The notes below the pieces were generated by a model. The model was not told where the DNA came from, did no database searches, and saw only the letters and a list, made by a program, of their open reading frames with translations. The position numbers and the translations under genes were made by a program. Positions 39,144 to 58,507 of a stretch of DNA of 64,000 bases are shown here, one piece after another; positions within the stretch are counted from its first letter, which is position 1, and the number at the start of each line of letters is the position of its first letter. This DNA comes from an uncultured Clostridia bacterium (GTDB lineage: Bacteria; Bacillota; Clostridia; Peptostreptococcales; Anaerovoracaceae). The stretch covers positions 988-64,987 of the forward strand of contig CAKQOW010000004.1 of the NCBI GenBank assembly GCA_934256595.1. Reading direction: 5' to 3'.

Positions 39144-39623
39144 ATGGAAAAGACGACAAGCAGGCTTACAGTTATTTTCGAGGACCCTTTCTGGATAGGG
39201 CTTTATGAACGGCAGACAGGTGCCCGGTATGAAGTTTGCAGAATTGTATTCGGAGCCGAGCCCAGGAACTATGACATTGAGGCGTTTATGAGAAAAAACT
39301 GGCGGAAGCTGAAATTCAGTCCGGCTGTATCCGGCGAAGCTCTAAATGAGCGCAGAGTAAATCCCAAGCGAATGCAGAGGGAGATAAACAGGGCTATGAA
39401 GCAAAAAAGCATCAGCACTAAGGCGCAGCAGGCGATAAACCTTGCAAGAGAGCAAAACAAGCTGGAAAAGAAAAAACGCTCCAGAGAGCAGAAAGAAGCC
39501 GAAAAACAAAAGAAACTTCTGATACATCAGGAAAAGAAAAGACAAAAGCACAGGGGGCCATTAACCTCTGTGCTTGATTCGTTTATATGTTCTGCGCTAT
39601 CAGGCTTCCTATCTGCTCTGTAG
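39144..39623 (+). CDS. yjdF: YjdF / DUF2992 family protein
   Basis: [16 protein letters not shown]..., a basic C-terminal half ([14 protein letters not shown]...[16 protein letters not shown]...KHRG). The ATG at 39144 follows AAGGAGG. The 3' end overlaps convergent leuB by 41 nt. Confidence 0.7.
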
Positions 39624-40653
39624 TGGCAGGAAGTTTGCCCTCAGACATTATATCAGGAGTTCTGTAGCCTGCGGCAAGTGTTTTCTTGACAGCGTTTTCG
39701 ATAGCATCAGCCTCGTCTGACAGACCGAATGTGTATTTGAGCATCATAGCCGCCGACAGGATTGTAGCCATAGGGTTTGCCTTGCCGGTGCCTGCAATAT
39801 CAGGCGCAGAGCCGTGAACAGGCTCATACATGCCGAAATTACCCTCTGCAAGAGAAGCCGACGGAAGCATTCCGAGAGATCCTGTAATCATACTTGCCTC
39901 ATCAGAGAGGATATCTCCGAAAATATTGCTTGTAACAATTACGTCAAACTGCTTCGGGTTATATACAAGCTGCATTGCTGTATTATCCACATAGAAATTC
40001 TCAAGCTCAACTTCAGGATATTCTTTTGCAACCTCTGCTACTGTTTTTCTCCAGAGTCTGCTGCTTTCAAGCACATTGGCCTTGTCAACGCTTGTAACTT
40101 TTTTGTTTCTCTTCATTGCCATATCAAAGGCAACCTTTGCTATTCTTCTTACTTCACCCTCTGAATACTGCTCTATGTCATAGGCTGCCCTGCCCATATC
40201 TGTATCTTTATAGCCCCTTTCGCCAAAGTATATACCACCTGTAAGCTCTCTGACTACCAGCAGATCAAGACCGCCTTCGACCTTTTCAGGTCTGATAGGG
40301 CAGGCGTCCTTGAGCTCATCAAACATTATTGCAGGGCGCAGATTTGCAAACAGTCCCAGCTCTTTTCTGATTCCGAGAAGCGCTCTTTCGGGCCTTTTGT
40401 CGCCGGGCAGGGAATCCCATTTGGGACCGCCGACAGCGCCCAGCAGCACTGCATCGCTTTTTTTGGCAATATCTATTGTTTCCTGCGGCAGACATTCGCC
40501 TGCAGCATCTATTGCAGCGCCGCCTGCAAGAACCTGTGTATAATTAAATTCGTGACCGTATTTGCTGCCTACGGCATCGAGAACCTTAATCGCCTCGTTT
40601 ATAACCTCGGGGCCTATGCCGTCGCCGGGTATTACAGCTATATTGTATTTCAT
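39583..40653 (-). CDS. leuB: 3-isopropylmalate dehydrogenase
   Basis: [22 protein letters not shown]-type ([12 protein letters not shown]), GSAPDIAG. Confidence 0.95.
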
Positions 40654-40662
40654 AATATCCTC

Positions 40663-41142
40663 CTACTTGATGGAATTAAGCAGTCCGCCTGATTTAATAA
40701 TATTATTTATAAATTCAGGGAACGGCATTGCCTTGTATTCAGTGCCTTTAGTTATATCCTTTATGGTTCCTGTTTCAAAATCCACCGAAACCTCATCGCC
40801 TGCTTCGATAGCTTCTGCTGCTTCAGGACATTCTAAAATGGCAAGTCCGATATTGATGGAGTTCCTGTAAAAAATTCTCGCAAAGGATTTAGCTATAACG
40901 CAGGAAATGCCTGACTCTTTAATAGCGATAGGGGCGTGCTCTCTTGATGAGCCGCAGCCGAAGTTCCAGCCTGCAACCATAATATCGCCTGATTTAACCT
41001 TGTTTACAAACTCACTGTCTATATCCTCCATACAGTGGGATGCAAGCTCCCTGTGGTCTGCTGTATTTAAATGTCTTGCAGGGATTATTACATCTGTATC
41101 CACATTATCTCCGTATTTATGAACAAAACCTTGTGCTTTCAT
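40663..41142 (-). CDS. leuD: 3-isopropylmalate dehydratase small subunit
   Basis: [31 protein letters not shown]. The ATG at 41142 is preceded by AAGGAGG. The longer track ORF overlaps leuC. Confidence 0.92.
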
Positions 41143-41144
41143 TG

Positions 41145-42407
41145 CTACATTACCTCCTTGGGATCTGAGATTTTTCCTGTTACTGCTGATGCAGCGGCTA
41201 CTGCGGGACTTGCAAGATATACCTCTGACTCGGTATGTCCCATTCTGCCTACAAAGTTTCTGTTGGTGGTTGCAACGCAGCGTTCGCCCTCTGCCAGAAT
41301 ACCCATATGTCCGCCAAGACATGGTCCGCATGTAGGAGTCGATACAACGCAGCCTGCATCAATGAATATGTCAAGATAGCCCTTTGCTATACATTCCTTG
41401 TATATCTTCTGTGTTGCAGGAATTATGATACATCTCACATCTCTTGCAACTGTTTTGCCTTTAAGGATTTCGGCTGCCGTAGCCATATCTTCAATTCTGC
41501 CGTTGGTGCAGGAGCCGATTACAACCTGATCTATTTTAACATCGCCCACATTGTCTATTGTCTTTGTGTTTTCCGGCAGGTGAGGGAATGAAACTGTTGA
41601 CTTAAGCGCGGATAAATCAATTGTTACAGTCTGCTCATACTCTGCGTCATCATCGGGAGCATAGACCTTGTATTCTCCGTTTACTCTGCCTTTCATATAG
41701 TTTTCGGTGACCTCATCAACCATGAATATACCGTTTTTGGCGCCGGCCTCTATAGCCATATTTGCGATGCAGAGTCTGTCGTCCATTGAAAGTGAGGACA
41801 GACCCTCGCCCATAAATTCTAGGGATTTGTAAAGCGCGCCGTCAACGCCGATAGTTCCGATAAGGTGCAGGATTACGTCCTTGCCCGAAACATATTTATT
41901 GAGTTTGCCTTTGAGCTCTACTTTGATTGCGGACGGAACCTTAAACCATGCGGTGCCTCTGGCCATGCCTGCTGCCATATCTGTAGAGCCTACGCCTGTT
42001 GAGAATGCTCCGAGAGCCCCGTATGTACAGGTATGGGAGTCTGCTCCGATAATGCAGTCGCCTGCCTTGACAAGACCAAGCTCGGGAAGCAGGGCATGCT
42101 CAATACCCATATTGCCTACATCATAGAAATTAACTATTTCGTGTTTCCTTGCAAATATTCTTGTCTGCATACACTGCTGCGCAGCCTTGATGTCCTTGTT
42201 AGGTGTGAAATGGTCCATTACAAGAGATATCTTTGATTTGTCGAAAACCTCGGTAAAGCCTGCTTTTTCAAATTCGTTTATTGCAACGGGAGCAGTAATG
42301 TCGTTTGCCAGAACCATATCAAGCTTTGCATCAATAAGCTGTCCGGCCTTGACCTGATCAAGCCCTGCGTGTGCAGCAAGAATTTTTTGTGTCATTGTCA
42401 TTCCCAT
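41145..42407 (-). CDS. leuC: 3-isopropylmalate dehydratase large subunit
   Basis: [33 protein letters not shown]. The ATG at 42407 is preceded by AAGGAGGAA. Confidence 0.93.
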
Positions 42408-42423
42408 AATAATTTCCTCCTTG

Positions 42424-44115
42424 TTAGAATGCCCTGTTGATAGCGCTGATAAGAGCATTTATAGATGCATAGATAATATCGTTGTGTATGCCTACGCCCC
42501 AGAATGTTTCTCCGTTTCTGGAGATTGCAACATATGATGCGGCTCTTGAGTTTGATTCTGATTCAAGGGCATGCTCGTGATATGTTATGAATTCGTATTC
42601 CAGACTGTAGTGGCTGCTTCTGAGAGCTGTAGTAACGGCGTCGAGTCTGCCGTTTCCCTCGCCCTTGAGTGAGTGATGCTCTCCGTAGATGGTAGCCTCT
42701 ATGCTTACCTTCATTATATCATTTTCTCCTCTGGAGAAGGTAGCATCTTCTATGCTGATTTTGTCTTTTCTGTTGACGTACTGCTGCTGGAATATCCTGT
42801 GAATTTCAGCAGGGGACAGCTCCTTGTGAGCTTCGTCTGATATATGCTTCATCAGATAGCCGATTTCCTCTCTCATCTTCTTAGGAATATCGTATCCGTA
42901 GTTTGTTTCAAGTACATAGGCCACGCCGCCCTTGCCGGACTGGCTGTTTATTCTGATTACATCGGCCTCGTATTCTCTGCCTACATCATGCGGATCTATC
43001 AGCAGATATGGACACGACCACTTGTCAGGGTGATTTGCTTCGATGTGGTGCATTCCCTTGGCAATAGCGTCCTGATGTGAGCCGGAGAATGCGGCGAATA
43101 CCAGGCTGCCGCCGTAAGGCTGACGAGGGCTGACCTTGAGGTCTGTGAATTTTTCATACATTTCAACTACCTTAGGCATATCAGAAAAGTCAAGCTGCGG
43201 GTCTACTCCGTGTGAAAACAGGTTCATAGCTACTGTAAGTATATCGGCGTTGCCTGTACGTTCGCCGTTTCCAAACAGTGTGCCCTCAACTCTGTCGCCG
43301 CCTGCCAGCATGCCAAGCTCGCAGTCTGCAACTGCAGTGCCTCTGTCGTTGTGAGGGTGCAGTGATACGATTACGTTTTCTCTGCAGTGGAGGTTCTTGC
43401 TCATATATTCAACCTGTGAGGCATATACATGCGGCATTGACATCTCAACTGTTGCCGGAAGATTGATTATTGTTTTTCTTGCGGGACTCGGCTGCCAGAT
43501 GTCGATAACGGCATTGCATACCTCAAGTGCGTAATCAACTTCTGTGCCTGTGAAGCTTTCAGGGGAATACTCGAATGTGAAGTGTGTGTCTCCCGGGAAG
43601 CTGTCGGCATATTTTTTGACAAGCTCTGCTCCGTCTGTCGCTATTTTTTTGATTTCGTCCTTTGACTTTCTGAAAACCTGCTCTCTCTGCGCCACAGAGG
43701 TGGAGTTGTACAGGTGAACTATTGCGTTTTTGACACCCTCAAGGGATTTGAAAGTCTTGTCGATTATGTGCTCTCTGGACTGTGTCAGCACCTGTATGGT
43801 TACATCATCGGGTATCAGGTCTTTTTCTATTAAAGTACGAAGAAATTCATATTCTGTTTCAGAGGCTGCAGGGAAGCCCACTTCTATTTCCTTGAAGCCG
43901 AGCTGGCACAGATATTCAAAGAATTCCAGCTTCTCTTCAAGACTCATGGGAACTATCAGTGCCTGGTTGCCGTCACGCAGATCTACGCTGCACCAGATAG
44001 GCGGCTTGTCCGCATGGTCCTTTGTGACCCAGTCATATGACGGGACGGGAGGCATAAAATAGCCAACCTCGTATTTAGTATGATTTTTCATTCCTTTGAT
44101 GTTTTCGCTTGCCAT
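42424..44115 (-). CDS. leuA: 2-isopropylmalate synthase (long form with C-terminal regulatory domain)
   Basis: [22 protein letters not shown]. 563 aa. Confidence 0.93.
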
Positions 44116-44134
44116 AGTAAAAAGTCCTTTCGTA

Positions 44135-44179
44135 TAAAAACAAAAGCCCTGTTCCCAACATTAAATCAGAAACAAGGCT
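44135..44179 (-). terminator. Intrinsic terminator (attenuator) in the leu operon leader
   Basis: On the minus strand AGCCTTGTTTC pairs with GGAACAGGGCT (11 bp, 2 G-U pairs), followed by TTTGTTTTT. It ends 20 nt upstream of the leuA ATG. Confidence 0.6.
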
Positions 44180-44241
44180 GAATGTATAATAAAATATAAA
44201 GAGAATCTTAAAAAGTGTTGAGAATATCTAATGCTATATAA

Positions 44242-44280
44242 TTATGAATCACAAGTGAGGCATAAGAGTAGTAATAACAT
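44242..44280 (-). CDS. 12-aa Leu-rich leader peptide MLLLLLCLTCDS
   Basis: AAAGGAGAA SD 7 nt upstream. Six Leu codons (TTA TTA CTA CTC TTA ... CTC). It lies between the promoter and the terminator upstream of leuA. Confidence 0.55.
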   Translation of the reverse strand: MLLLLLCLTCDS

Positions 44281-44313
44281 TAAATTTCTCCTTTCTTCTT
44301 AACTGATACGACT

Positions 44314-44342
44314 ATTCTATACCGTTTTGTCCGGTAAGTCAA
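44314..44342 (-). promoter_or_regulatory. leu operon promoter
   Basis: On the minus strand TTGACT (44342-44337), 17 nt, TAGAAT (44319-44314). Confidence 0.6.
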
Positions 44343-44400
44343 TAAGTTTTTGTGAAAAAACACAATATTTTTTGTGCTGATATATTATACGGCAACAAAA

Positions 44401-44832
44401 TTACATATTGTCAATGTCCGCCGGAGTCAGAATTCGTATTTTTTCAGATTCAAGCAGGTTTTCCACTTCCGAAGCGTCATCAACTCTGACAACAAGATAA
44501 GCCTTGTTTTCTGTGCGGGTGAGAAAAGCGTACATGTATTCCATATTTATACCTCTTTCGGCAAACAGCCTGACTATCTCGGCAAGACCGCCGGGCCTGT
44601 CGTTTATCTCAACGCCTACAACATCGTTGATGGTTGCGACAAATCCGTTTTTTTCAAGCAGCGCCTTTGCTTTATGGGGATCTCTGACGATCAGGCGCAG
44701 TATTCCGAATTCGCTTGTGTCAGCAATAGACAGCGCCCTTATATCTATACCCGCTTTTGCAAGTATATCTGTTATTTCTCTTAATTTTCCTTCTTTGTTT
44801 TCGACGAAAACCGATAACTGTTTAATAGCCAT
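44401..44832 (-). CDS. ACT domain-containing protein (two ACT repeats)
   Basis: LSVFVENKEGKLREITDILAKAGIDIRALSIADT... and a second repeat VGVEINDRPGGLAEIVRLFAERGINMEYMYAF. Confidence 0.85.
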   Translation of the reverse strand: MAIKQLSVFVENKEGKLREITDILAKAGIDIRALSIADTSEFGILRLIVRDPHKAKALLEKNGFVATINDVVGVEINDRPGGLAEIVRLFAERGINMEYMYAFLTRTENKAYLVVRVDDASEVENLLESEKIRILTPADIDNM

Positions 44833-44843
44833 TGCTTTACCTC

Positions 44844-46148
44844 CTAATCGTGAAGTTTTCTTTTATCAATTACTCTGACAGCCTTGCCCTCGCTTCTTGC
44901 GATTGTTTTAGGCGTAACAAGATGCACATCGGGGCTGATACCCAGGATGCCTTTGATTGCAGATGCAAGTTTTTTCTCGCGGGCTGTTATTTCTCTGACT
45001 GTATCCGAGAACTGTCCGGCACTGAGCTCTACATTGATATCAAAGGTGTCGGTGTTTTTAACTCTGTCAAGCACGATCTGATAGTTAGGAGTGTAACCTT
45101 CGTTCAGCAGAACAGTTTCGATCTGTGAAGGGAAGACGTTTACCCCCCTTATAATCATCATATCGTCGCTCCTGCCAAGCGGTTTGGACATTTTGATGAA
45201 AGTTCTGCCGCAGGAGCATTTTTTCCTGCTCAATACGCACAGGTCTCTTGTACGGTATCTGAGCAGAGGGAAAGCCTCCTTGTCAAGTGATGTGAAGACA
45301 AGCTCGCCGACACTGCCTTCGGGAAGCACTTCGCCTGTATCGGGATCTATAATTTCGGCAAGGAAGTGGTCCTCGTTTATATGCATGCCGTTTTGCTCGC
45401 AGCACTCAAATGCAACGCCGGGACCGCTTGTTTCTGTAAGTCCGTATATATCATAAGCTTTGATTCCGAGGCTTTTTTCTATGGAATGTCTCATTTCCTC
45501 AGTCCATGGCTCAGCTCCGAAAATACCTGCCTTGAGAGTGTTGTTTTTAATACCCTTTTCCTCCATGCTTTCAGCTATATATGCGGCATATGAAGGGGTG
45601 CAGCACAGAATTGTTGACTGCATATCATTCATGAACTGTATCTGCCTGTCTGTATTGCCTGATGACATGGGGAGTGTCAGACAGCCTACTTTATGTGAGC
45701 CTCCGTCAAGTCCGGCGCCGCCTGTAAACAGACCGTAGCCGTAGCATACATGGCATACGTCATCTCCGGAGCCGCCTGCTGCCACAATAGCCCTTGCGCA
45801 GCAGTCCTCCCATAAATCTATATCATGCTGTGTATAGAATGCGACCACACGTCTGCCTGTTGTGCCTGAGGTTGAGTGAATTCTGACGCAGTCTGATTTT
45901 GGTACTGCCAGCATTCCGTCAGGGTAGCTATCCCTGAGATCGGCTTTGGAAATGAAAGGCAGCTTGTGAAGATCCTCAATCCCTCTTATATCTTCAGGTC
46001 TGACGCCTTTTTCGTCCATAAGGTTTCTGTAATACGGAACATTGCTGTATACATGCTGCACCTGTTTTACGAGTTTCTGTGACTGAAGCTTTCTGATTTC
46101 CTCTACAGGCATTGTTTCAGCCTGCTTCTGATAGTAATTGTTGGTCAT
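44844..46148 (-). CDS. paaK: Phenylacetate--CoA ligase family protein
   Basis: HSTSGTTGRRVV (AMP-binding). 434 aa. PaaK-type C-terminal domain. Followed by the ACT protein, as is common for this family. Confidence 0.88.
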   Translation of the reverse strand: MTNNYYQKQAETMPVEEIRKLQSQKLVKQVQHVYSNVPYYRNLMDEKGVRPEDIRGIEDLHKLPFISKADLRDSYPDGMLAVPKSDCVRIHSTSGTTGRRVVAFYTQHDIDLWEDCCARAIVAAGGSGDDVCHVCYGYGLFTGGAGLDGGSHKVGCLTLPMSSGNTDRQIQFMNDMQSTILCCTPSYAAYIAESMEEKGIKNNTLKAGIFGAEPWTEEMRHSIEKSLGIKAYDIYGLTETSGPGVAFECCEQNGMHINEDHFLAEIIDPDTGEVLPEGSVGELVFTSLDKEAFPLLRYRTRDLCVLSRKKCSCGRTFIKMSKPLGRSDDMMIIRGVNVFPSQIETVLLNEGYTPNYQIVLDRVKNTDTFDINVELSAGQFSDTVREITAREKKLASAIKGILGISPDVHLVTPKTIARSEGKAVRVIDKRKLHD

Positions 46149-46452
46149 ATTTAGTCTCCTTTTTTGAATTTGAGGGCGAAAACATAAAAACCCTCTGCTG
46201 TTGATTGCAGAGGGTGAAATATTTCACGGTACCACCTCAGTTCATCATTGCCTCACGACAATGACCTTTGCGGGCACTATCATGCCCTGACAGGTAACGG
46301 CTGTCTGCCGGCGGCGCCTACAAGCGTTTGCCTTCAGCGTGCATCTGTTCGGAAGGAATTCGGTTAATGTCCGCCTGCTGCCTCTCACCTGCCGCAGCTC
46401 TCTGTAAGGTTTGTCCTAACTTACTGGTTTCCGGTCATCGATTTTGAATTAC
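46149..46452 (-). promoter_or_regulatory. T-box leader (candidate Phe UUC specifier)
   Basis: Features on the minus strand are as follows. Promoter TTGACT (46487-46482), 17 nt, TATAAT (46464-46459). Stem I elements GATGA...AGTA, AGAGAG and GGTGAGA. A specifier-loop-like GAA-UUC-C (UUC at 46358-46356). T-box sequence GAGGTGGTACCGTG (46238-46225). Terminator CCCTCTGC-aatcaaca-GCAGAGGG-TTTTT (46214-46186). Confidence 0.8.
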
Positions 46453-46555
46453 AGTTAGATTATACACAGAGGGTATATTAAAGTCAAGAAAAATTATTGA
46501 TTTATAACAAAAAATCTGATATAACATAGGTATACAACACAAAAAGAAAGAAGAG

Positions 46556-47863
46556 ATGTTTATGTACAGATACTTATCCCACCTTATACTCTATTCAGAC
46601 AGAAGCGAAAGCTCCATATTGTATGAAACAGGGGAGCTTTTCAGAAATTACGACAACGGCGCCAAAGAAAAATCAGAGCTTGTAAAAGACGCATATAATA
46701 TAGTAAGAAAAATTCTCGATATATCAACCGCATATGCTTTTGATGAGAATTTGTGGACAAGCTATCTGACCTACTATCTCATAAACTCGGAGAACTCTTT
46801 CAGCGCTTCGTGCGAGAGGAGAGGGGCAATAGAGGGCAGTGTCAATTCATTTGCAAAGCATGACTTTGAGATTTTTATGAAGCTTTTCAGATTTGATTTC
46901 AGCGAGATAGAGCGAGAGCTTGGCATAGACTGCTTCTCGGTTCTGTGCGACTATACTGCGGTTGAGAAGCCGTCGCTTATGTATAATCCAAATGTCATGA
47001 AAAGAGTCAGAGAGCTTAGAGCCCAGCTTGAAACCGCAAAGGACAAAGATGAATTTTTCGAGGCGGTGTCGGAGTTTTACAAGGCCTACGGCGCGGGAAT
47101 ATTCGGAGTAAACAGGGCGTTTAGGATTTCAGACAGAGAGGATATACTGGAGTTTGAGCCTGTTAAGAATATGGACGATGTGGTTTTAGAGGATCTTGTG
47201 GGCTATGAGGTTCAGAAGCAGAAGCTTCTTGAAAACACCAAAGCCTTTGTGGACGGCAAACCTGCCAACAACGTACTGCTGTACGGTGACAGGGGGACGG
47301 GCAAATCCACCAGCATCAAGGCTGTTGCCAACAGGTTCTGGCCGGACGGACTTAGAGTTATTCAGGTATACAGGCATCAGATGAAGATGCTTTCGAGGAT
47401 AATCTCTGCAATCAGAACAAGAAACTACCGGTTTATAATATATATGGACGATCTGTCATTTGAGGATTTTGAAACAGAATACAAATACCTCAAGGCTGTA
47501 ATAGAGGGAGGGCTTGAGTCAAAGGCCGAAAATATCCTTATATATGCAACCTCAAACAGAAGACACCTTATCAAAGAAACATGGGACGACAGAAACGATA
47601 TGGAGCATACGGGAGAGCTCCACAGAGGCGACAGCATGGAGGAGAAGCTGAGTCTTGCGGACAGATTTGGAGTTCAGATTTACTACGGCAAGCCGTCTAA
47701 GGACGAGTTCTACAAAATCATAGACGAGCTGTCCGAAACTGAGGGAGTTGCCATGGATAAGGAGCAGCTTCACAAAGAAGCCAATGCATGGCAGATACGT
47801 CACGGCGATGTGTCCGGCAGATGCGCAAGGCAGTTTGTGGACTACATCAAGGGTAAGGCATAA
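46556..47863 (+). CDS. DUF815-type AAA/P-loop ATPase
   Basis: Walker A LLYGDRGTGKSTSIKA and Walker B IIYMDDLSF, with an N-terminal about 200-aa uncharacterised region. Confidence 0.75.
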   Translation: MFMYRYLSHLILYSDRSESSILYETGELFRNYDNGAKEKSELVKDAYNIVRKILDISTAYAFDENLWTSYLTYYLINSENSFSASCERRGAIEGSVNSFAKHDFEIFMKLFRFDFSEIERELGIDCFSVLCDYTAVEKPSLMYNPNVMKRVRELRAQLETAKDKDEFFEAVSEFYKAYGAGIFGVNRAFRISDREDILEFEPVKNMDDVVLEDLVGYEVQKQKLLENTKAFVDGKPANNVLLYGDRGTGKSTSIKAVANRFWPDGLRVIQVYRHQMKMLSRIISAIRTRNYRFIIYMDDLSFEDFETEYKYLKAVIEGGLESKAENILIYATSNRRHLIKETWDDRNDMEHTGELHRGDSMEEKLSLADRFGVQIYYGKPSKDEFYKIIDELSETEGVAMDKEQLHKEANAWQIRHGDVSGRCARQFVDYIKGKA

Positions 47864-47876
47864 TATTATATTTGTT

Positions 47877-47968
47877 AAAAATGTGCGGCATATTGCATTT
47901 TTCGCTGTAAAAAATGTAATAGGTCGCATTTTTTTGTTGCAAAAAATGTGAGGGGGGGGGGGTATAAT
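47877..47968 (+). promoter_or_regulatory. Promoter region with phased AAAAATG...CATTTTT palindromes and a poly-G spacer
   Basis: Units start at 47877, 47909 and 47941 (32-bp phase). The first is AAAAATG-N12-CATTTTT and the second AAAAAATG-N10-CATTTTTT. The promoter is TTGCAA (47937-47942), a 20-nt spacer, then TATAAT (47963-47968). Confidence 0.5.
47952..47962. repeat. G11 homopolymer tract immediately upstream of the -10 box
   Basis: Eleven consecutive G read directly (a-ggggggggg-gg-tataat). This is very unusual in an AT-rich intergenic region. Confidence 0.95.
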
Positions 47969-48057
47969 ATTTGAAATATCTGACTTCAGATGAAACTATT
48001 CTGCAGACCCTGCATCTAATTTACAGGAAACGCTTAAATATCAGGGAAACTGAAATT

Positions 48058-49722
48058 ATGAAATTGTACATTGAAGAACTAAAACGACTAAAAAAGAACA
48101 AACTGCTGTGGATTGTGATCCTCATATATACGCTGTATAACCTTATCAGCATTTTCAGATACCAATACTCTGCACTTGAGGTCAGTGACGGGCTTGACCC
48201 TACAAGACAGATACTGTTTCTGTGTCCGCAGATATTCATACTGTATCTGGTGACGGGATATGAGTTTCTGTCGGAACAGTACAGAGCGGGAATTAATGAG
48301 AGCATTGCGGCTACGGCGGGAGGCTGTACCGGCAGGAATGTATTGGCGGGCTTTATGGTAATGGCAAGCGTGCTGTTTGTAAATTACGCTGTGTTTGCGG
48401 GCTTTGACATTGCGGTTACAAATGCAATATTTGATGCAAAGAATATTATCGGAGCAAACAGAGTGGCGGATTTGTATATAACAAGGAGCCTTTTTATCAA
48501 CATATTTCTGATAGGACTTATCGGTATATCAGCGGCTCTTGTTATCTCAAAGATACAAAAGAGAATAGCGGCATATGCGGTAATAATGGCAGTGATATTT
48601 GCATCATCATATATGATGAGTGAAATAGCTACTATGGTTATGATAATTACCGATTATGCCGTAAATCTGTTTGACATACTTGATATGTTTAATGTTATGG
48701 TGCCGGGGCTCAAGTTTATTCCTAATTATGCCATTGGTTTTCCTGAGATGACCTATAGGATATGTCTGATACTGTTCTGGAGTGCGCTTCTGATTACAGT
48801 TTATCTGATAGCAGGAAGCCGCAGAAAGTGTACATTAAGAAATGCCATATGCGTGATTGTGTGCATATGCTGCTTCATAGGATATGTGCTTCCGTCATCA
48901 AGGGTTGATATGGGGCTGAGCAGTACAGGCTCTGCTATGGCAGACCAGCACTACTATAATATTGCGGGATACAAGCTCGAAAATGAAGCCGGCGGATTTG
49001 ACGTTGACCGCTACACCATGGAGCTTGATACAAGGAGGCTTCTCAAGGCAAAGGTTACAATGGAGGTGTCAGAGCCTCTTGAAGAATACAAATTTACTCT
49101 GGCTCACAGTTATGAAATCAGGGCTGTGTATGATGAGAATGGCAGAAGTATGAAATATGACCGGGATAAAGATGCTCTCACTGTTTACAGCAATGACAGT
49201 AATACGAAGCAGATAACGGTTGAATACAGGGGAGCAAACGAGGCATATTATTCGTGCTCGCAGGGAGTTAATCTGAGAGGAAGCTTCCCTTACTATCCTG
49301 TTGCGGGCTTCAGAAGCATTACAAGAGACGGAATGATTATGAATGCGCTGTTTCTTGAAAAAAATGCGGATTTTGATGTATATATAAAGAGCTTCAAAAA
49401 GGTATATTCAAACCTTGAGGAAATAGAAAAGGGTCACTTTACAGGCAAAAGCAACGGTGCTACACTTGTCAGCGGCCTGTATACTTCAACCGAAAGGTAC
49501 GGCGTCAGAATAGTGTATCCGCCGCTTTCCGCGTTACGCGATGAAAGCCTTGATGCAGCGGCAAAGGCGGCGGTCAAAGACGGATATGGAGAGAGTCAGA
49601 TTTTCATAACACCGAATATGAACCGTCAGGACGATGCGGTAAGCAAGGAACAGATAATTACAAGGAACTGCTTTGAAACAGTAAAAGACCTGGCTTACTA
49701 TAGAAATCAGGGCGGATACTAG
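48058..49722 (+). CDS. Polytopic membrane protein (ABC-2-permease-like N-terminal half plus about 250-aa extracytoplasmic C-terminal domain), paralogue A
   Basis: The ATG at 48058 aligns with the start of paralogue B (MKLYIEELKRLKKNKLLW...). There are 6 or more TM segments. Roughly 85-90% aa identity to 51318..52994 by eye. Confidence 0.75.
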   Translation: MKLYIEELKRLKKNKLLWIVILIYTLYNLISIFRYQYSALEVSDGLDPTRQILFLCPQIFILYLVTGYEFLSEQYRAGINESIAATAGGCTGRNVLAGFMVMASVLFVNYAVFAGFDIAVTNAIFDAKNIIGANRVADLYITRSLFINIFLIGLIGISAALVISKIQKRIAAYAVIMAVIFASSYMMSEIATMVMIITDYAVNLFDILDMFNVMVPGLKFIPNYAIGFPEMTYRICLILFWSALLITVYLIAGSRRKCTLRNAICVIVCICCFIGYVLPSSRVDMGLSSTGSAMADQHYYNIAGYKLENEAGGFDVDRYTMELDTRRLLKAKVTMEVSEPLEEYKFTLAHSYEIRAVYDENGRSMKYDRDKDALTVYSNDSNTKQITVEYRGANEAYYSCSQGVNLRGSFPYYPVAGFRSITRDGMIMNALFLEKNADFDVYIKSFKKVYSNLEEIEKGHFTGKSNGATLVSGLYTSTERYGVRIVYPPLSALRDESLDAAAKAAVKDGYGESQIFITPNMNRQDDAVSKEQIITRNCFETVKDLAYYRNQGGY

Positions 49723-49757
49723 GGAAAGGAATAACGGATAATACGAAAGGAAAGATT

Positions 49758-50600
49758 ATGCTTGAGATAAGAAATTTAAACAAAAGCTTCAGAAAGAAAA
49801 ACGCTGTGGATGACCTCAGCCTGTCTCTCGGCAGCGGAGTATACGGCCTGCTGGGACCAAACGGAGCAGGCAAGACAACCCTGATACGCTGTCTTACCAA
49901 TCTGTATAAATTTGACGGTGAGATAGAATACAGGGGAGAGAATATACGGGGAAACAAAACATATATGTCTGAGATAGGGTATCTTCCGCAGAAATTCGGA
50001 GCATACAGAGAGCTGACGGCAGAAGAAAATCTGTATCATTTCTGCGTACTAAAGGATATCCCAAAGGATTTGCGCAAAAAAGAGATAGACAGGGTGCTTG
50101 AAATGGTTAATCTGTCAGATGAGAGAAGCAAAAAAGCCAAAGCTCTGTCAGGCGGAATGACCAGAAGACTTGGGATAGCGCAGGTGCTTTTGGGAAGCCC
50201 TGATATTATGATATTTGACGAGCCTACCGCAGGTCTTGACCCTGAGGAAAGATTAAGATTTAAAATGATAATATCCTCGCTTCCAAAGGACAGACTCATA
50301 CTTATTTCCACTCATATAGTTGAGGACGTTGATGCGCTTTGCAGCGGCATAGTTATTATGAAAGACGGCAGAGTCAGATTTAACGGAAGTACCGGGGAAC
50401 TGAAATCACTTGCAAAAGGCAGGGTGTTTGAGTGCGACAGCACGCAGCTTGAAGAAATAGAGGGAAGATACTATATAGAGAGGCAGTTTGAGCAGGAGGG
50501 CAGAGTAAGATACCGTCTGCTTTCGGACACAGTTCAGAACTGTGATACTGCATCAGCAAGAATAGAGGATGGATACATATGCGTACTGGAAGAAATCTAA
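49758..50600 (+). CDS. ABC transporter ATP-binding protein (ABC-2 exporter type)
   Basis: Walker [10 protein letters not shown], signature LSGGMTRRL, Walker B IMIFDEPTAGLD. Confidence 0.9.
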   Translation: MLEIRNLNKSFRKKNAVDDLSLSLGSGVYGLLGPNGAGKTTLIRCLTNLYKFDGEIEYRGENIRGNKTYMSEIGYLPQKFGAYRELTAEENLYHFCVLKDIPKDLRKKEIDRVLEMVNLSDERSKKAKALSGGMTRRLGIAQVLLGSPDIMIFDEPTAGLDPEERLRFKMIISSLPKDRLILISTHIVEDVDALCSGIVIMKDGRVRFNGSTGELKSLAKGRVFECDSTQLEEIEGRYYIERQFEQEGRVRYRLLSDTVQNCDTASARIEDGYICVLEEI

Positions 50601-51241
50601 AAAAAGAATACAGCCTGTTTCTGTTTCAGCTTAAAGGTATCAGGGGGCTGTTTGCAGTGCCTCTGATTGTGATGTTTATTCTTATTCCTCTGATACTTAT
50701 ATTAACAATGAAAAAATATGATGAAATCGCATATGTGGAGGAGCGCTTTATAATACTCAGCCAGTATTTTGTGCCGATATTTTCAATATGGTGGATAGGC
50801 TTTTCATTTATAGACCTCATAGAGGGTGACGGAAATGAAGTCTATTATATAAATCACAGAATGAAGAACAAGCTGGTAATTATGTGGCTGGCGCTTTATC
50901 TGGCGATAATCGGAGCAGGCTATCTGATTGCCTCAATCTGGATTGAGAATATGGCGCTTGAATATGTAAGGATAGCCGTAAGCTGCTGCTTCTATGTCGG
51001 TATTATGTACTCATTTATGTATATATTCAGCTCTATGACCGCGGCATTCTTAGGCGTTGCCATATACTGGACGGAGTCTCTGTTTGGCAGCGGGATAAAT
51101 ATGGGAGTGCTGAATTGTCAGGTGGGTCTATCGGCTACTAGGGAACTGATTCTTCAGCATTATTCATGGATTATGCTTGCAGCAGTTATTTTGTATATTG
51201 CAGGCTATATATGTAATATGAAGAAACAGAAATTTGTCTAG
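50579..51241 (+). CDS. Small polytopic membrane protein (putative permease partner)
   Basis: About 6 TM segments and a 22-nt overlap with the ATPase gene. No family was recognised. Confidence 0.6.
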   Translation: MRTGRNLKKEYSLFLFQLKGIRGLFAVPLIVMFILIPLILILTMKKYDEIAYVEERFIILSQYFVPIFSIWWIGFSFIDLIEGDGNEVYYINHRMKNKLVIMWLALYLAIIGAGYLIASIWIENMALEYVRIAVSCCFYVGIMYSFMYIFSSMTAAFLGVAIYWTESLFGSGINMGVLNCQVGLSATRELILQHYSWIMLAAVILYIAGYICNMKKQKFV

Positions 51242-51317
51242 GCATTACATATGAAGCTGTTTTGCAGGCGCTGCATCACGTTAATATAAAATGCTTTAAT
51301 ATCAGGGAAATTGAACT

Positions 51318-52994
51318 ATGAAATTATACATTGAAGAACTTAAACGACTTAAAAAGAATAAACTGCTGTGGCTTGCGATACTCATATATACGCTGTATAA
51401 TCTTATCAGTATTTACAGGTATGAGTGCTCTGTAATTGAGAACACTAATGGACTTGGTCCTACAAATCAGATACTGTTTCTGTGTCCGCAGATATTCATA
51501 CTGTATCTGGTGACAGGCTATGAGTTTCTGTCGGAGCAGTACAGAGCGGGAATTAATGAGAGCATTACTGCTACGGCGCGAGGCTGTACCGGCAGGAATG
51601 TATTTGCGGGTTTTATGGTAATGGTAAGCGTGCTTTTTGTAAATTACGCTTTGTTTGCAGGCCTTGACATTATTGTTACCAATGCGGGATTTGCCATAGA
51701 TGATATTGCCGGAGTAAACAGAGTGGCGGATTTATATATAGTCAAGAGTCTTTTTATCAACGTCTTTTTGATAGGATTTATAGGAATATCTGCAGCTCTT
51801 GCTATTTCAAGGATACAAAAGAGAATAGCGGCATATGCGGTAATAATGGCGGTGATATTTGCATCGTCATACATGGTAAACGAAATAGCTACTATGGTTA
51901 TGATAATTACCGATTATGCTGTGAACCTGTTTGACCTGCTTGATATGTTTAATATTATGGTGCCGGGGCTAAGGCATATTCCTAATTGTGCCTTGGGTTT
52001 TTCTGAGATGACTTATCGGGTTTGTCTGATACTGTTCTGGAGCGCGCTGCTGATTACCATTTATCTGATAGCAGGAAGCATCAGAAAGCTTACATTAAGA
52101 AATGCAGTATGCGTGATTGTGTGCATATGCTGCTTCATAGGATATGCGCTTCCGTCCTCAAGGGTTGATATGGGACTGAGCAGTACAGGCTCTGCTATGG
52201 CAGACCAGCACTACTATAATATTGCGGGATACAGGCTCAAAAATGAAGCCGGCGGGTTTGATGTTGACAGCTATACTATGGAGCTTGACACAAGGAGGCT
52301 TCTCAAGGCAAAGGTTACAATGAAAGTGTCAGAGTCACTTGAAGAATACAAATTTACACTGTCCCACAGCTATGACATCAGGGCTGTGTATGACGAAAGC
52401 GGCAGAAGTATGAAATATGACCGGGACAAAGATGCTCTCACTGTTTACAGCAATGACGGCAATACGAAGCAGATAACGGTTGAATACCGGGGAGCAAATG
52501 AGGCATATTATTCGTGCTCGCAGGGAGTTAATTTAAGAGGGAGCTTCCCTTACTACCCTGTTGCGGGCTTCAGAAGCATTACAAGGGACGGACAGATTAT
52601 GAATGCGCTGTTTCTCGAGAAAGATGCGGATTTTGATGTATATATAAAGAGCTTCAAAAAGGTATATTCAAACCTTGAGGAAATAGAGAAAGGTCACTTT
52701 GCAGGCAAAAGCAACGGAGCCACACTTGTCAGCGGACTGTATACTTCAACTGAAAGGTATGGTGTCAGGATAGTTTATCCGCCTCTTTCCAGATGGAACG
52801 ATGAAAATCTTGATACAGTTGCAAAGGCTGCAGTCAAAGACGGATATGGAGAGAGTCAGATTTTCATAACACCGAATATGAACCGTCAGGACGATGCGGT
52901 AAGCAAGGAACAGATAATTACAAGAAACTACTTTGAAACAGTAAAAAGCCTTGCTTTCTATAGAAATCAGGGCGGATACTGGGGAAAGGAATAA
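51318..52994 (+). CDS. Polytopic membrane protein, paralogue B of 48058..49722
   Basis: Collinear with paralogue A over its full length. The stop codon TAG of A is replaced by TGG, which adds WGKE. Confidence 0.75.
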   Translation: MKLYIEELKRLKKNKLLWLAILIYTLYNLISIYRYECSVIENTNGLGPTNQILFLCPQIFILYLVTGYEFLSEQYRAGINESITATARGCTGRNVFAGFMVMVSVLFVNYALFAGLDIIVTNAGFAIDDIAGVNRVADLYIVKSLFINVFLIGFIGISAALAISRIQKRIAAYAVIMAVIFASSYMVNEIATMVMIITDYAVNLFDLLDMFNIMVPGLRHIPNCALGFSEMTYRVCLILFWSALLITIYLIAGSIRKLTLRNAVCVIVCICCFIGYALPSSRVDMGLSSTGSAMADQHYYNIAGYRLKNEAGGFDVDSYTMELDTRRLLKAKVTMKVSESLEEYKFTLSHSYDIRAVYDESGRSMKYDRDKDALTVYSNDGNTKQITVEYRGANEAYYSCSQGVNLRGSFPYYPVAGFRSITRDGQIMNALFLEKDADFDVYIKSFKKVYSNLEEIEKGHFAGKSNGATLVSGLYTSTERYGVRIVYPPLSRWNDENLDTVAKAAVKDGYGESQIFITPNMNRQDDAVSKEQIITRNYFETVKSLAFYRNQGGYWGKE

Positions 52995-53017
52995 TGGATA
53001 ATACGAAAGGAAAGATT

Positions 53018-53086
53018 ATGCCTGCAGCCGCAGTGATTTTTGTCATAGGCTATATATGCAGCAGGCAAAAGCAGAGATTTGTCTGA
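53018..53086 (+). pseudogene. Deletion scar: start codon and SD of a second ABC ATPase gene fused to the last about 20 codons of a second small-permease gene
   Basis: 52981-53021 matches 49721-49761 (GGAAAGGAATAA.GGATAATACGAAAGGAAAGATTATGC). The remainder (..AAVIFVIGYICSRQKQRFV*) parallels the C-terminus ..AAVILYIAGYICNMKKQKFV* of 50579..51241. Confidence 0.7.
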
Positions 53087-53165
53087 ACGAAAAATATATA
53101 TGAGATAAGCTATAGAAAGACCTTGCCCGCAAATGAGCAAGGTCTGCTGGGTATTTATTATAAAT

Positions 53166-54095
53166 TTATCTGCATTTGTTAAGCAGCTGCTCCCACTTTC
53201 TGTCTATATAGCTCTGGGCCTCTTCTATCATCCATTCGCTGCCTTTTTTGAACATATGGCTGAATCGTCCCTGCAGCTTCAGAAACTCCTCAACCGGCAG
53301 CTTCTTTTTCGGCTCATAGGTCAGGCGGTATACGCCGTCCTCAATTTCAAACAGAGGCCATACGCAGGTATCAACAGCCATTCTGCTGATATGCGCTATG
53401 TCGGAAGCATTGTATCTCCAGCCTCTCGGACATGGTGACAGTACGTTGAGGAAATTTGCTCCCTCTGTATATATGGCCTTTCTGGCTTTTTCGTGCAGAT
53501 CGCTCATATTGCCGATAAATGCAGTCTGCGCAACATAAGGCGAGCCGTGGGCGGCAATAATTGCCGTCAGATCCTTTTTGTTCTGCTGCTTGCCCGGCAG
53601 CTTGCTTCCTGCAGGAGATGTCGTGGCATTGGCAAATCTCGGAGTGGAGGAGGAGCGCTGTATGCCCGTATTCATATATGCCTCGTTGTCATAGCATACA
53701 TACACGAAATCGTGATTTCGCTCTATGGCTCCCGAAAGGGACTGCAGCCCTATATCGTAGGTACCGCCGTCACCGCCAAAAGCTATAACCTTGAAGTTCT
53801 CCTTTACCTTGCCTTTCTGCTGCAGCACCTTGTAGGCTGTTTCAACACCTGCGGCAGTTGCAGCGGCGTTTTCAAAGGCGCTGTGAATGAAGCTGTCCTC
53901 ATAGGCGGTATACGGATACATAAAGGTTGATACCTCAAGACAGCTTGTAGCGTTTACAACAACGGCTTTATCTTCAGGCTCCAGCGCTCTCAGCACGCCT
54001 CTTACGGTTATACCTGCTCCGCAGCCGGCGCACAGCCTGTGACCGCCTGCGAGTCTTTCTTTTTTTTCTGATTCTTTTTTTAAGTTGTACGTCAT
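53166..54095 (-). CDS. 2-oxoacid:ferredoxin oxidoreductase, beta (TPP-binding) subunit
   Basis: CAGCGAG, GDGG.YDIG. The ATG at 54095 is preceded by GAGGTG and follows the alpha stop by 4 nt. Confidence 0.88.
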   Translation of the reverse strand: MTYNLKKESEKKERLAGGHRLCAGCGAGITVRGVLRALEPEDKAVVVNATSCLEVSTFMYPYTAYEDSFIHSAFENAAATAAGVETAYKVLQQKGKVKENFKVIAFGGDGGTYDIGLQSLSGAIERNHDFVYVCYDNEAYMNTGIQRSSSTPRFANATTSPAGSKLPGKQQNKKDLTAIIAAHGSPYVAQTAFIGNMSDLHEKARKAIYTEGANFLNVLSPCPRGWRYNASDIAHISRMAVDTCVWPLFEIEDGVYRLTYEPKKKLPVEEFLKLQGRFSHMFKKGSEWMIEEAQSYIDRKWEQLLNKCR

Positions 54096-54099
54096 AACC

Positions 54100-55371
54100 T
54101 TACACCTCATATTTCTCTTTGTCTTTGCCGTATGTTCTGGCGGCGCCTCTGTGGTATTCCTCTTTCATCATGCGCTGGTCGGCATCTATGTATCTGGAGT
54201 CCCTTACTCCGACATATCTGTATACATCGCCCGGATCATCCTCATCTATAATGTCGTAAAGATCCTGATATATATCATAATAATCCTCAACCCGTATATC
54301 TCTGCCGCCAAGACCGTAGATATAGTTTACGGCATAAGGTCTGTCAGGCAGATCGTAAAGGGAGCTTCTTGCCTCATTGAACAGCGGCCCGCCGCTGTTT
54401 GAAAAGCTCTCGGCCTTGTCCATTATGGCGACTGCCTTTACCTTGCACATTGCAGCGGCAAGAGGTCTTCTCGGAAACGGTCTGAACACGCGCAGCTTGA
54501 TAAGCCCTACCTTGCGGCCCTCTGCGCGGAGCCTGTCAACAGCCTCCTTGCCTGTGCCTGCGCTTGAGCCCATAACAACGAGGGCAACATCGGCATCGTC
54601 CATCATATATTCCTCAAAAAATCTGTATTTGCGTCCTGTAAGCTTTTCGTAGGCTTTGCCTATCTCAAGTATCACGGGCATTGAGTCTTTCATAGCCTGC
54701 GCCTGCGCTCTTTTTACTTCCATATAATACGGGGAGGTTCCGTAAGGACCGACCGCCAGAGGATTTTCACTGTTTAACAGGAAGTTGTCAGGCTCGTATT
54801 CCCCGACAAAGGCTTTGACCTTTTCGTCCTCAAGCAGCTCTATATTTGACACGCCGTGACTTGTAATAAAGCCGTCCTGACAGGCCATAACCGGAAGTCT
54901 GCATTTTTCGGCAATCAGAACCGCCTGTATGAAATTATCATAGGCCTCCTGATTTGTTTCGGCATACATCTGTATCCAGCCCGAATCTCTTGCACCCATT
55001 GAGTCGGAATGGTCGTTGTTTATATTGATAGGCCCCGACAGCGCTCTGTTTACTACAGACATAACTATAGGAAGCCTCATGGAAGCCGATACATAAAGCA
55101 GCTCCCACATATATGCAAGTCCGCAGGAGGAGGTTGCCGTCATCGCTCTTGCCCCTGCGGCGGAAGCGCCTATGCAGGTTGACATTGCGCTGTGCTCTGA
55201 CTCGACGGGGATAAAGCCTGTATCCACAAGACCGTCAGCCACATAGCCTGAAAAATATTCGGGAATTTCTGTTGACGGTGTAATAGGGAAAGCACCCACA
55301 ACATCGGGATTTATCTGCCTCATAGCTATAGCTACTGCTTCATTTCCTGATTTTCTCTCTCTTACAGCCAT
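54100..55371 (-). CDS. 2-oxoacid:ferredoxin oxidoreductase, alpha subunit
   Basis: GNEAVAIAMRQINPDVVGAFPITPSTEI, ESEHSAMS. Confidence 0.88.
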   Translation of the reverse strand: MAVRERKSGNEAVAIAMRQINPDVVGAFPITPSTEIPEYFSGYVADGLVDTGFIPVESEHSAMSTCIGASAAGARAMTATSSCGLAYMWELLYVSASMRLPIVMSVVNRALSGPININNDHSDSMGARDSGWIQMYAETNQEAYDNFIQAVLIAEKCRLPVMACQDGFITSHGVSNIELLEDEKVKAFVGEYEPDNFLLNSENPLAVGPYGTSPYYMEVKRAQAQAMKDSMPVILEIGKAYEKLTGRKYRFFEEYMMDDADVALVVMGSSAGTGKEAVDRLRAEGRKVGLIKLRVFRPFPRRPLAAAMCKVKAVAIMDKAESFSNSGGPLFNEARSSLYDLPDRPYAVNYIYGLGGRDIRVEDYYDIYQDLYDIIDEDDPGDVYRYVGVRDSRYIDADQRMMKEEYHRGAARTYGKDKEKYEV

Positions 55372-55680
55372 TTATTCTCCCTCCTTAACCATAATGATTG
55401 CGCCGAAAGGACATACCTTCGCGCATATGCCGCAGCCCTTGCAGTGCATAAAATCAAAGTCAAGCCTTTTGCCGTCCTTAACAGGAATCGAGCTGTCGGG
55501 ACAGTAAGGGAAGCACAGCATACAGTGTCTGCATTTGGCCTCATCGAATACAGGGCGGTCCACACGCCATTCGCCGGTGTTGACAAGTTTTGAGGTTGCG
55601 CCCTCATATATCTCGGCGCCTGTGGTAAGCTCCTGCCATGTTGATTTTTCATTTATATCTACAGCTTTTGTTTTTATCAT
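55372..55680 (-). CDS. 2-oxoacid:ferredoxin oxidoreductase, delta (2x[4Fe-4S]) subunit
   Basis: CRHCMLCFPYCP and CKGCGICAKVCP motifs. Confidence 0.88.
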   Translation of the reverse strand: MIKTKAVDINEKSTWQELTTGAEIYEGATSKLVNTGEWRVDRPVFDEAKCRHCMLCFPYCPDSSIPVKDGKRLDFDFMHCKGCGICAKVCPFGAIIMVKEGE

Positions 55681-55681
55681 T

Positions 55682-56260
55682 TTAAACTACCTCCGCAAGT
55701 GTGGCCTTGAGAGCCCTCATATTACCCTCGACTATTTCGGGTTTGCCCGGAAACTTGTGTCTGAAAGACTCCTCCATATCTCTGATGAACTGCTCCTGTC
55801 TGATTACTCCGCTGACCTTTACAGCGGCTGCAAGCATCGGAGTGTTTGGAAAATATCTGCCAAGAGCCTCCTCCGAAATCCTTTTTGCGTCTACCGTATA
55901 TATAGGGCCTTTGTATTCCTCAAGCAGCTCGCCTCTTATCTCCTCTGAGGATTTGTTGGTGTTTATGATAAGAGCGCCGTCCCTGCTCAGTCCCTTTGTA
56001 ACATTTACAGAGCCCAGCAGGGTTTCGTCCACCACTACCACATAGTCCGGAAAATATATATTTGAATGTACCTTGCAGTGTGAATCGGCTATTCTGTTGT
56101 AGGCCGTAATCGGCGCGCCCATTCGCTCAGGACCGTATTCGGGAAATCCCTGAACGTCCTTGCCCGAGTTAAAGGCTGCCTCTGCAAGAAACAGGCAGGC
56201 TGTCTTGGCTCCCTGTCCGCCTCTGCCGTGCCATCTGAATTCAACCATATTATCTGCCAT
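55682..56260 (-). CDS. 2-oxoacid:ferredoxin oxidoreductase, gamma subunit
   Basis: RWHGRGGQGAKTA, typical of POR/VOR gamma subunits. Confidence 0.88.
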   Translation of the reverse strand: MADNMVEFRWHGRGGQGAKTACLFLAEAAFNSGKDVQGFPEYGPERMGAPITAYNRIADSHCKVHSNIYFPDYVVVVDETLLGSVNVTKGLSRDGALIINTNKSSEEIRGELLEEYKGPIYTVDAKRISEEALGRYFPNTPMLAAAVKVSGVIRQEQFIRDMEESFRHKFPGKPEIVEGNMRALKATLAEVV

Positions 56261-56545
56261 ATCAATTACCTCCTAAATAAAAACTCTCTGCCCCGTAATG
56301 GGACAGAGAGGTAAATCTCTGCTATACCACCCAATACAAGTGCAGCATACAAACATATGCCTTCTCTGTTACGGGAGAACCCGTCAGAGCCTACTTTAAA
56401 AACAATTTCGGTCTGCAACTCAGGAGTGATTTTCGTATTCCGGCTTTCTTGTACCGGGCTCTCACTGTCTCCGGCTCGCTGTGAGCTCTGTCTGGAATAT
56501 TACTCTCTCCGTCAAAGTCTTTGGTATTGAATTATTGATTTACAT
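56261..56545 (-). promoter_or_regulatory. T-box leader (candidate Ile AUC specifier)
   Basis: Features on the minus strand are as follows. -35 TTGACA (56576-56571). K-turn-like TGACGGAGAGAGTA. Stem TATTCC/GGAATA followed by CGAAA-AUC-A (AUC at 56430-56428), then CTCC pairing back to GGAG. T-box TGGGTGGTATAGC (56333-56321). Terminator CTCTCTGTCCC-attac-GGGGCAGAGAG-TTTTT (56310-56279). The CAGAG/CTCTG alternative pairing fits an antiterminator. Confidence 0.7.
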
Positions 56546-58496: not shown

Positions 58497-58507
58497 AAAG
58501 AGAGGAG

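Follow-up and report, generated by a model that had tools for sequence, protein, structure and literature searches.

Does a run of 11 G residues lodged between the -35 and -10 hexamers of a promoter govern transcription of the membrane-protein genes behind it, or is it the remnant of an older gene arrangement? The question is raised by a 64-kb stretch of DNA (the window) from an uncultured gut Clostridia bacterium of the Anaerovoracaceae (GCA_934256595.1, contig CAKQOW010000004.1). A sequence-only reading of the window had placed the G run directly against a perfect TATAAT box, had counted a spacer of 20 nt from TTGCAA as too long for a working promoter, and had proposed that slipped-strand loss of 2-3 G turns on an ABC-type membrane module. 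Both the run and the box are where that reading had them, and the coordinates of the hexamers agree with the 20-nt count (Table 1). The run does precede the first large membrane-protein gene, although the start codon of that gene is the ATG at 48058 and not 48059, and the gene on the other side is a DUF815 gene, as its Pfam match confirms. Within the window the run is an extreme outlier: the second-longest G or C run has a length of 6, and from composition only 0.007-0.01 runs of at least 11 are expected per window. Neither the window nor ~60 kb of DNA from sister species contains another long G/C tract, and the locus therefore gives no sign of a genome-wide contingency-locus strategy.

Table 1. 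Features between the DUF815 gene and the end of the ABC array, in window coordinates
Feature	Position	Strand	Details
DUF815 P-loop ATPase gene	46556-47863	+	435 aa (elsewhere called from 46562, 433 aa); PF05673, E 1.9e-94
Long imperfect inverted repeat, then T7 (47929-47935)	47878-47934	+	Holds both A/T palindromes; candidate DUF815 terminator
-35 hexamer TTGCAA, ancestral sigma-A-type promoter	47937-47942	+	TTGTAA at the homologous site in L036, L037 and L038
G11 homopolymer	47952-47962	+	Inside promoter spacer 47943-47962 (20 nt); read directly
-10 hexamer TATAAT	47963-47968	+	Abuts G11; kept in L036 and L037 (TATAAT) and in L038 (TATAGT)
5.2-kb cargo (ABC module array)	47970-53165	+	Replaces the 1.4-kb cargo of the closest sister species, L036
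Perfect 6-bp palindrome ATCTGA-CT-TCAGAT	47977-47990	+	At the cargo junction, before the repeat unit; not upstream of the module in L025 and L035
ECF-sigma-type promoter TGAAAC-N15-GCATCTA	47991-48018	+	No second exact match in the window; 3' of the G-tract promoter and 5' of the start codon
Large membrane protein A, 554 aa	48058-49722	+	~8 TM helices and a 250-aa beta-rich C-terminal domain
ABC transporter ATPase, 280 aa, DrrA / lantibiotic-protection type	49758-50600	+	PF00005, E 2e-28
Small polytopic membrane protein, 220 aa	50579-51241	+	Always after the ATPase in relatives
Degenerate second copy of the ECF-type motif, TGAAGC-N15-GCATCAC	51252-51279	+	Ahead of paralogue B
Large membrane protein B, 558 aa	51318-52994	+	88% identical to A
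3' remnant of a second small-membrane-protein gene	52997-53086	+	Translation ends …MPAAAVIFVIGYICSRQKQRFV and stop, set against the C-terminus of the 220-aa protein

An Ancestral Promoter with a Variable G-Tract

Evidence on the origin of the two hexamers comes from five sister species recovered via the DUF815 protein, in all of which the DUF815 gene is syntenic (91-95% amino acid identity). Across the flanks, DNA identity to the window is 94% in L036 and ~85% in the other sisters. Three of these species (L036, L037 and L038) carry the equivalent -35/-10 pair with a spacer of exactly 17 nt and no homopolymer. The L036 promoter reads TTGTAA-AAAGTGTAGCGGGTGGG-TATAAT, and those of L037 and L038 follow it except that their spacers end in …GCGGGCGGG before TATAAT and in …GCGAGCGGG before TATAGT, respectively. 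A simple promoter scanner, which demands consensus hexamers with 16-18-nt spacing, scores the L036 promoter at 10/12. The sister -10 box is followed after ~30 nt by an RBS and an ATG, which open a 426-aa AAA_14/DUF4143 gene that matches the PADLOC candidate defence family PDC-S01 (E 2.6e-190). Because the same hexamer pair, 17 nt apart, precedes a gene start in the sisters, the window hexamers are validated as a promoter, and to judge from this conservation the pair is a genuine ancestral promoter of the sigma-A type that looks functional. The proposal that the homopolymer sits within the spacer of a sigma-70-type promoter is credible on the same grounds.

At the position of the G-tract the sister species have CGGGTGGG, CGGGCGGG or CGAGCGGG. 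Read from this alignment, the tract is a derived state of a G-rich spacer 3' end, in which CGGGTGGG turned into pure G and then gained 1-4 nt. The comparative series, from a 17-nt G-rich spacer in the sisters to G9-G12, shows a possible origin of such a switch. The G12 end of the series belongs to a more distant species, L039, which has TTGCAA-AAATGTGA-G12 and a destroyed -10 (ATAACA), and whose contig continues after the tract with a convergent gene and no + strand gene downstream. The G-tract allele (TTGCAA…TGTGA-Gn) is common to the window species and L039 (8160-8215) and is missing from the closest species, L036. This distribution suggests either recombination of the promoter region between lineages or an old polymorphism.

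In the G11 allele the scanner calls no 16-18-nt-spaced promoter at the site, as expected if 20 nt is too long, and an extended -10 (TG) is absent. The hexamers that do lie 16-18 nt from TATAAT with G10 or G11 (CAAAAA, AAAAAA and GCAAAA) match the -35 consensus at no more than 2 of 6 positions and were rejected. So was a CRP-like site, TGTGA-N6-TCACA, at 47947, since its right half is all G and its centre would fall at about -20, within the spacer. As a single run, G11 could form at most a marginal two-tetrad G-quadruplex.

Exact-protein look-ups of the window genes recovered 18 further independent assemblies of the same species, all from human-gut metagenomes of several studies and built with MEGAHIT, SPAdes or a third pipeline, so that tract lengths could be compared in 19 assemblies with the window included. 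The lengths differ: one assembly (L049) has G9 and a spacer of 18 nt, ten have G10 and 19 nt, and eight, among them the window, have G11 and 20 nt. The census was made on consensus assemblies (ENA and Logan), in which homopolymer lengths from short-read metagenomes may be off by one, and one G10 contig (L007) is to be discounted for its many indel errors elsewhere. A spacer of 19-20 nt is thus found in 18 of the 19 assemblies and one of 17 nt (G8) in none, whereas the -35 and a perfect TATAAT are intact in every one of them. The scanner accepts the G9 allele as TTGCAA-18-TATAAT. Of the two lengths predicted to be optimal by the proposal of a loss of 2-3 G, G9 occurs in a single assembly and G8 in none.

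Outside the tract, the remaining 186 nt of the intergenic region are the same in ten of the assemblies (window counted), which nonetheless have 9, 10 or 11 G; the tract is the sole variable site among them. Tract length is independent of the single common flanking SNP (T/C at 47935), and each of the three assembler types gives more than one length. The only other intergenic indel was seen in strain L053 (~3860-3921, homologous to window 47903-47933), where a 31-bp segment is directly duplicated between short GCATTTTTCG repeats. Three further searches returned nothing to add to the census: an exact-flank DNA pattern scan of JGI metagenomes gave no match, the look-up with the paralogue B protein no further assemblies, and that with a 583-aa TTG-start version of protein A no record. 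Across strains the tract is thus G9, G10 or G11 within the species, and it is G12 in L039. The tract is hypermutable relative to its surroundings, and the observed spacers exceed the optimum by 1-3 nt.

Cargo Exchange and a Second Promoter

The genes downstream of the tract are not those that the promoter precedes in the sister species. In a blastn comparison with L036, window positions 39558-47969 and 53166-58680 align at 94% and nothing aligns between them; homology breaks off just past TATAATA (47969) and returns at 53166, where an oxidoreductase beta-subunit gene has its stop codon. The slot between the DUF815 and 2-oxoacid:ferredoxin oxidoreductase beta-subunit genes is a cargo-swap site, with its left breakpoint exactly after the -10 box. 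In L036 the slot (8412-9789) is filled by the PDC-S01-type AAA_14/DUF4143 gene, a candidate phage-defence gene, and in the window species by the ABC array; L039 and L040 have other content or debris there. The palindrome at the cargo junction sits in 17-21 nt that belong to neither the ancestral promoter nor the repeat unit of the module. On the far side of the DUF815 gene and on the - strand, a T-box leader (RF00230, 46207-46447; 89.7 bits with a gathering score of 93, E 4e-19) lies upstream of an AMP-binding (phenylacetate-CoA ligase-like) gene at 44844-46148 and its ACT-domain neighbour; among the Rfam matches near the leader it is the single credible one.

The array contains an internal duplication, in which 47987-49764 corresponds to 51248-53024 at 88.8% identity, with the start of the repeat unit at 47987 aligned to 51248. 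Strain L062 goes further, with a tandem amplification of the entire unit to at least 2.5 copies. The duplication of A and B together with the promoter, the amplification in L062 and the 3' remnant suggest copy-number variation by unequal recombination. The module ORFs are intact in every spanning assembly except two indel-ridden contigs.

Protein A has no Pfam or NCBIfam match, a PDB sequence search with the membrane protein found no match, and a scan of GTDB genomes with the large membrane protein found no relative. The family is narrow and unannotated, with 57 proteins in 5.8 billion. The AF2 model of protein A (pLDDT 80.6) combines an N-terminal helical membrane domain with a beta-rich C-terminal domain, and the latter (residues ~300-554) shows a structural resemblance to N-terminal domains of M1 aminopeptidases and of LTA4 hydrolase (Foldseek E ~3e-9, TM 0.25-0.3). 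Protein A contains no HExxH zinc motif, and so its extracytoplasmic domain, joined to an ABC-type permease, may bind peptides without catalytic activity. The ATPase matches TIGR01188 (6e-53) and TIGR03740 (8e-46) in NCBIfam, both under the cut-off, and PADLOC marks it alone in the module, with generic matches.

The module also has a promoter motif of its own. The exact ECF-sigma-type motif of the window recurs in the relative L025 at 5278 (before a secreted-protein gene), 9247 (before a p156-sigma-anti-sigma operon) and 11890 (before a third operon), and in L035 at 1174 (before the module). Among these copies the hexamers are conserved and the spacer sequence is variable. Such recurrence, which includes a copy before the sigma operon itself, is characteristic of an autoregulated ECF regulon. 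The three module genes are accompanied in relatives by a ~140-aa Sec-signal protein together with an ECF sigma and its DUF4367 anti-sigma, and in one lineage (89% identity) the module is carried on a conjugative element beside VirB4, CHAP and RHS-toxin genes. The L025/L035 regulon on the conjugative element, itself uncharacterised, consists of the ~140-aa secreted protein, the membrane protein with the M1-like domain, the ABC ATPase, the 220-aa membrane protein, a 156-aa secreted protein, the ECF sigma and the DUF4367 anti-sigma. All are preceded by exact TGAAAC-N15-GCATCTA, and the regulon adjoins a very large RHS/YD-repeat toxin gene.

In the 64-kb window, tblastn with the ECF sigma and anti-sigma proteins of L025, L035 and L012 found no match, nor was there a homologue of the ~140-aa secreted protein (p143 family). 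The ECF-type promoter of the window is orphaned, in that its cognate sigma/anti-sigma pair has no copy within 64 kb. An entry point for sigma-A would therefore be of consequence for the expression of the array. Ownership of the G-tract promoter must be revised accordingly: it had been assigned to the ABC module, and a sigma-70-type promoter does lie upstream of it, but this promoter is older than the module, which brings its own of the ECF type.

Candidate Roles of the Tract and the Upstream Hairpin

We give roughly even chances to the reading in which the slippage-prone spacer tunes or switches sigma-A read-in transcription of the acquired ABC array. The promoter belongs to the chromosomal slot 3' of DUF815 and drives the PDC-S01-type AAA_14/DUF4143 gene in sister species. 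In the window lineage the G-rich end of its spacer turned into a pure G-tract that grew, lengthening the spacer to the present 18-20 nt (G9-G11), and the original cargo gave way to an ABC array from an ECF-sigma regulon borne on a conjugative element. Each one-base slip would shift the distance between -35 and -10 as well as their rotational phase, so that sigma-A transcription into the array would be heritable but unstable. By the spacer-length rule, read-in should be near-optimal at G8-G9 and weak at G10-G11, and it would bypass the array's own ECF-type promoter, whose sigma is not encoded nearby. The sequences establish the tract and its position, the ancestral 17-nt promoter, the length polymorphism, the cargo swap and the ECF motif; from these we infer that the promoter is still used, that tract length controls expression and that the variation is adaptive. 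Several observations speak against a switch, namely the lack of any G8 allele, the single 18-nt spacer among 19 assemblies, and an ECF-type promoter that could make the one upstream dispensable. What survives of the original claim of ON/OFF phase variation is a tract in the spacer whose length differs between strains; the optimal lengths are rare, and switching would be the predicted consequence.

A serious contender, though one that we lean against, is that the promoter is a relic. It would have lost its function once the cargo was exchanged, and its G-rich spacer would have drifted into a homopolymer whose slippage is neutral. Transcription of the module would then start at the ECF-type promoter alone and depend on a sigma from another locus, such as a conjugative element in the same cell. 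Every observed spacer measures 18-20 nt, with modes at 19 and 20. Because L039 keeps G12 beside a dead -10 and has no + strand gene downstream, a tract of this kind can persist without being a switch. With ~9% flank divergence, it would not be improbable for chance to leave the G-tract uninterrupted in two lineages (our own estimate is ~0.35). The exact ECF motif between tract and gene, which is found also before the sigma operon in relatives, offers the module another route to expression. A relic promoter is harder to reconcile with a -35 and a perfect TATAAT that are intact in all 19 assemblies, with the lack of a cognate sigma within 64 kb, and with module genes whose intactness and amplification imply expression. 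Moreover, proven poly-G switches likewise show a majority at a weakly active length (PMC7864442). Should the promoter be a relic, the tract would be no more than a common hypermutable homopolymer, and it would caution against taking a promoter tract for a switch because of its textbook looks.

The preferred reading, that spacer length tunes or switches sigma-A read-in, also has a far-reaching form that we regard as unlikely, a true contingency switch. Slips between G8/9 and G10/11 would stochastically allow sigma-A to express, independently of ECF control, an orphan ABC array that resembles toxin-immunity systems and was captured from a conjugative element, and a subpopulation would stand pre-armed against a secreted factor of competitors that carry the full element. 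Such a switch would have been built from the spacer of a host promoter at a cargo-swap hotspot. If the tract is functional, repeat-mediated phase variation of a promoter spacer would have a clear example in an uncultured commensal gut Firmicute.

Upstream of the promoter, AAAAATGT, AAAAAATGT and again AAAAAATGT begin at 47877, 47909 and 47941 in an exact 32-bp phase, and the palindromes AAAAATG-N12-CATTTTT and AAAAAATG-N10-CATTTTTT are both present. These had been taken for repeated sites of a dimeric regulator. The phase and the palindromes stand, but a better explanation is that they form parts of a single conserved hairpin with a T7 run behind it. In the MFE structure predicted for 47864-47970, which is one long hairpin (z = -4.3), palindrome 2 pairs through its 5' arm with the 3' arm of palindrome 1, and the N12 interior pairs with the N10 interior. 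RNAalifold, applied to six sequences from five species, gives a 23-pair stem at 47878-47934 (-20.7 kcal/mol), with one compensatory pair, five pairs kept via one-sided changes and two broken in some sequences. Unit 1 is AAAACGG…CATTTTT in both L036 and L038, and unit 2 is AAAAAATG…CACTTTTT. These substitutions leave each palindrome imperfect when taken singly and fit the long hairpin, so that conservation does not extend to the palindromes as separate elements.

The hairpin lies 15-72 nt past the DUF815 stop codon. Its A/T-rich, 23-pair stem is not called by a terminator scanner that wants a short G+C-rich one, and yet the fold and its conservation indicate that the hairpin with T7 is probably the intrinsic terminator of the DUF815 gene. 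The third unit is the -35 region of the promoter, starting 2 nt past the T-run, and the 32-bp phase, though real, is a consequence of the nested symmetry of the hairpin. Tandem Repeats Finder reports no tandem repeat for the 32-bp units. Rfam finds nothing relevant on the leader, and its MIR7504 match on the palindromes was set aside as noise.

That the A/T palindromes are operators for a dimeric regulator of the module, with their 32-bp phase as the arrangement of its sites, is very doubtful. The spacing equals three helical turns, and a 12-mer, TGTAAAAAATGT, is found at 47873, 47906 and 47938 with at most one mismatch and at only two other such sites in the 64-kb window. A single hairpin accounts for the complementary interiors, the compensatory change kept in five species and the T7 that follows. 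The imperfect palindromes of L036 and L038 and the L053 strain, with its 31-bp duplication of unit 2, point the same way, as does the location of a region older than the module at the 3' end of the DUF815 gene. The weakest alternative, a sequencing or assembly artefact of two-colour-chemistry poly-G or homopolymer miscalls, can hardly be credited even though homopolymers of 10-11 G are error-prone and L007 has obvious indel errors elsewhere: the tract is internal, unique sequence borders it to left and right in 19 assemblies that stem from several studies and three assemblers, G9-G11 recur with both flanks in the 18 assemblies other than the window, and the sister species are G-rich at the same site.

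Comparison with Known Systems

Variation of a homopolymer in a promoter spacer is a known kind of regulation. What is new here is its setting in an uncultured gut Clostridia lineage, the clear evolutionary series and the dual-promoter context. The known cases of phase variation in commensal gut Firmicutes are mostly invertible promoters, and our literature search for Clostridia promoter homopolymer switches found no specific example.

The closest parallels come from pathogens. In porA of Neisseria meningitidis, a poly-G tract between the -35 and -10 varies the spacing around a 17-nt optimum through slipped-strand mispairing. The tp0126 gene of Treponema pallidum likewise has poly-G between its -35 and -10 hexamers, with an optimum of 17 nt (PMC7864442). 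The window promoter resembles both in that poly-G occupies a sigma-70-type spacer, single-base changes alter the spacing, and envelope-protein genes lie downstream. It differs from them in its host, an uncultured gut Clostridia bacterium, and in natural lengths that lie 1-3 nt above the optimum. Moreover, in contrast to porA and tp0126, an older chromosomal promoter here feeds a swapped-in cargo that has its own ECF promoter, and the effect on expression is predicted.

The tprE/G/J/L genes of T. pallidum carry tracts of G7-G12, of which those with 8 G or fewer are permissive and those with 9 G or more are weak (PMC7864442). At tprL the predominant length, 9 G, is poorly expressed, whereas 8 G gives activity and 10 G a level close to background (PMC7864442). 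A majority at a weakly active length is thus common to these genes and, if the predicted activities hold, to the G10 and G11 modes of the window species. Unlike the window tract, that of the tpr genes lies just upstream of the transcription start site and not clearly between hexamers, and a CRP-like factor co-regulates them.

Homopolymers also set the distance from an upstream element to the -10 box in fim2/fim3 of Bordetella pertussis (poly-C) and in the vlp genes of Mycoplasma hyorhinis (poly-A). The window tract shares this feature of a promoter homopolymer that sets the spacing to the -10 box. The fim promoters differ in their dependence on the activator BvgA, and the vlp genes encode surface lipoproteins in a minimal genome.

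For the second promoter, the relevant models are the sigma/anti-sigma operons of the SigW/SigM/SigV type in Bacillus subtilis, which are autoregulated and have a -35 with 'GAAAC'. The window motif is like these in recurring, among relatives, before a sigma operon and its associated operons. It departs from the Bacillus ECF examples in its -10, CATCTA as opposed to the CGTC/CGTA type, and in being orphaned within 64 kb.

Finally, the module itself invites comparison with lactococcin 972-type loci, in which a Sec-secreted bacteriocin is encoded with a large polytopic membrane protein (TIGR01654) and an ABC ATPase (TIGR03608). A large membrane protein and an ABC ATPase are present here as well, and in relatives (L012, L023/24 and L025) the module follows a ~140-aa Sec-signal protein. 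In contrast to those loci, the membrane proteins have no NCBIfam match and the secreted partner is missing from the window. The ATPase scores 106 bits against TIGR03608, where the cut-off is 255. By analogy with such systems, a role of the ABC module in immunity or export is plausible.
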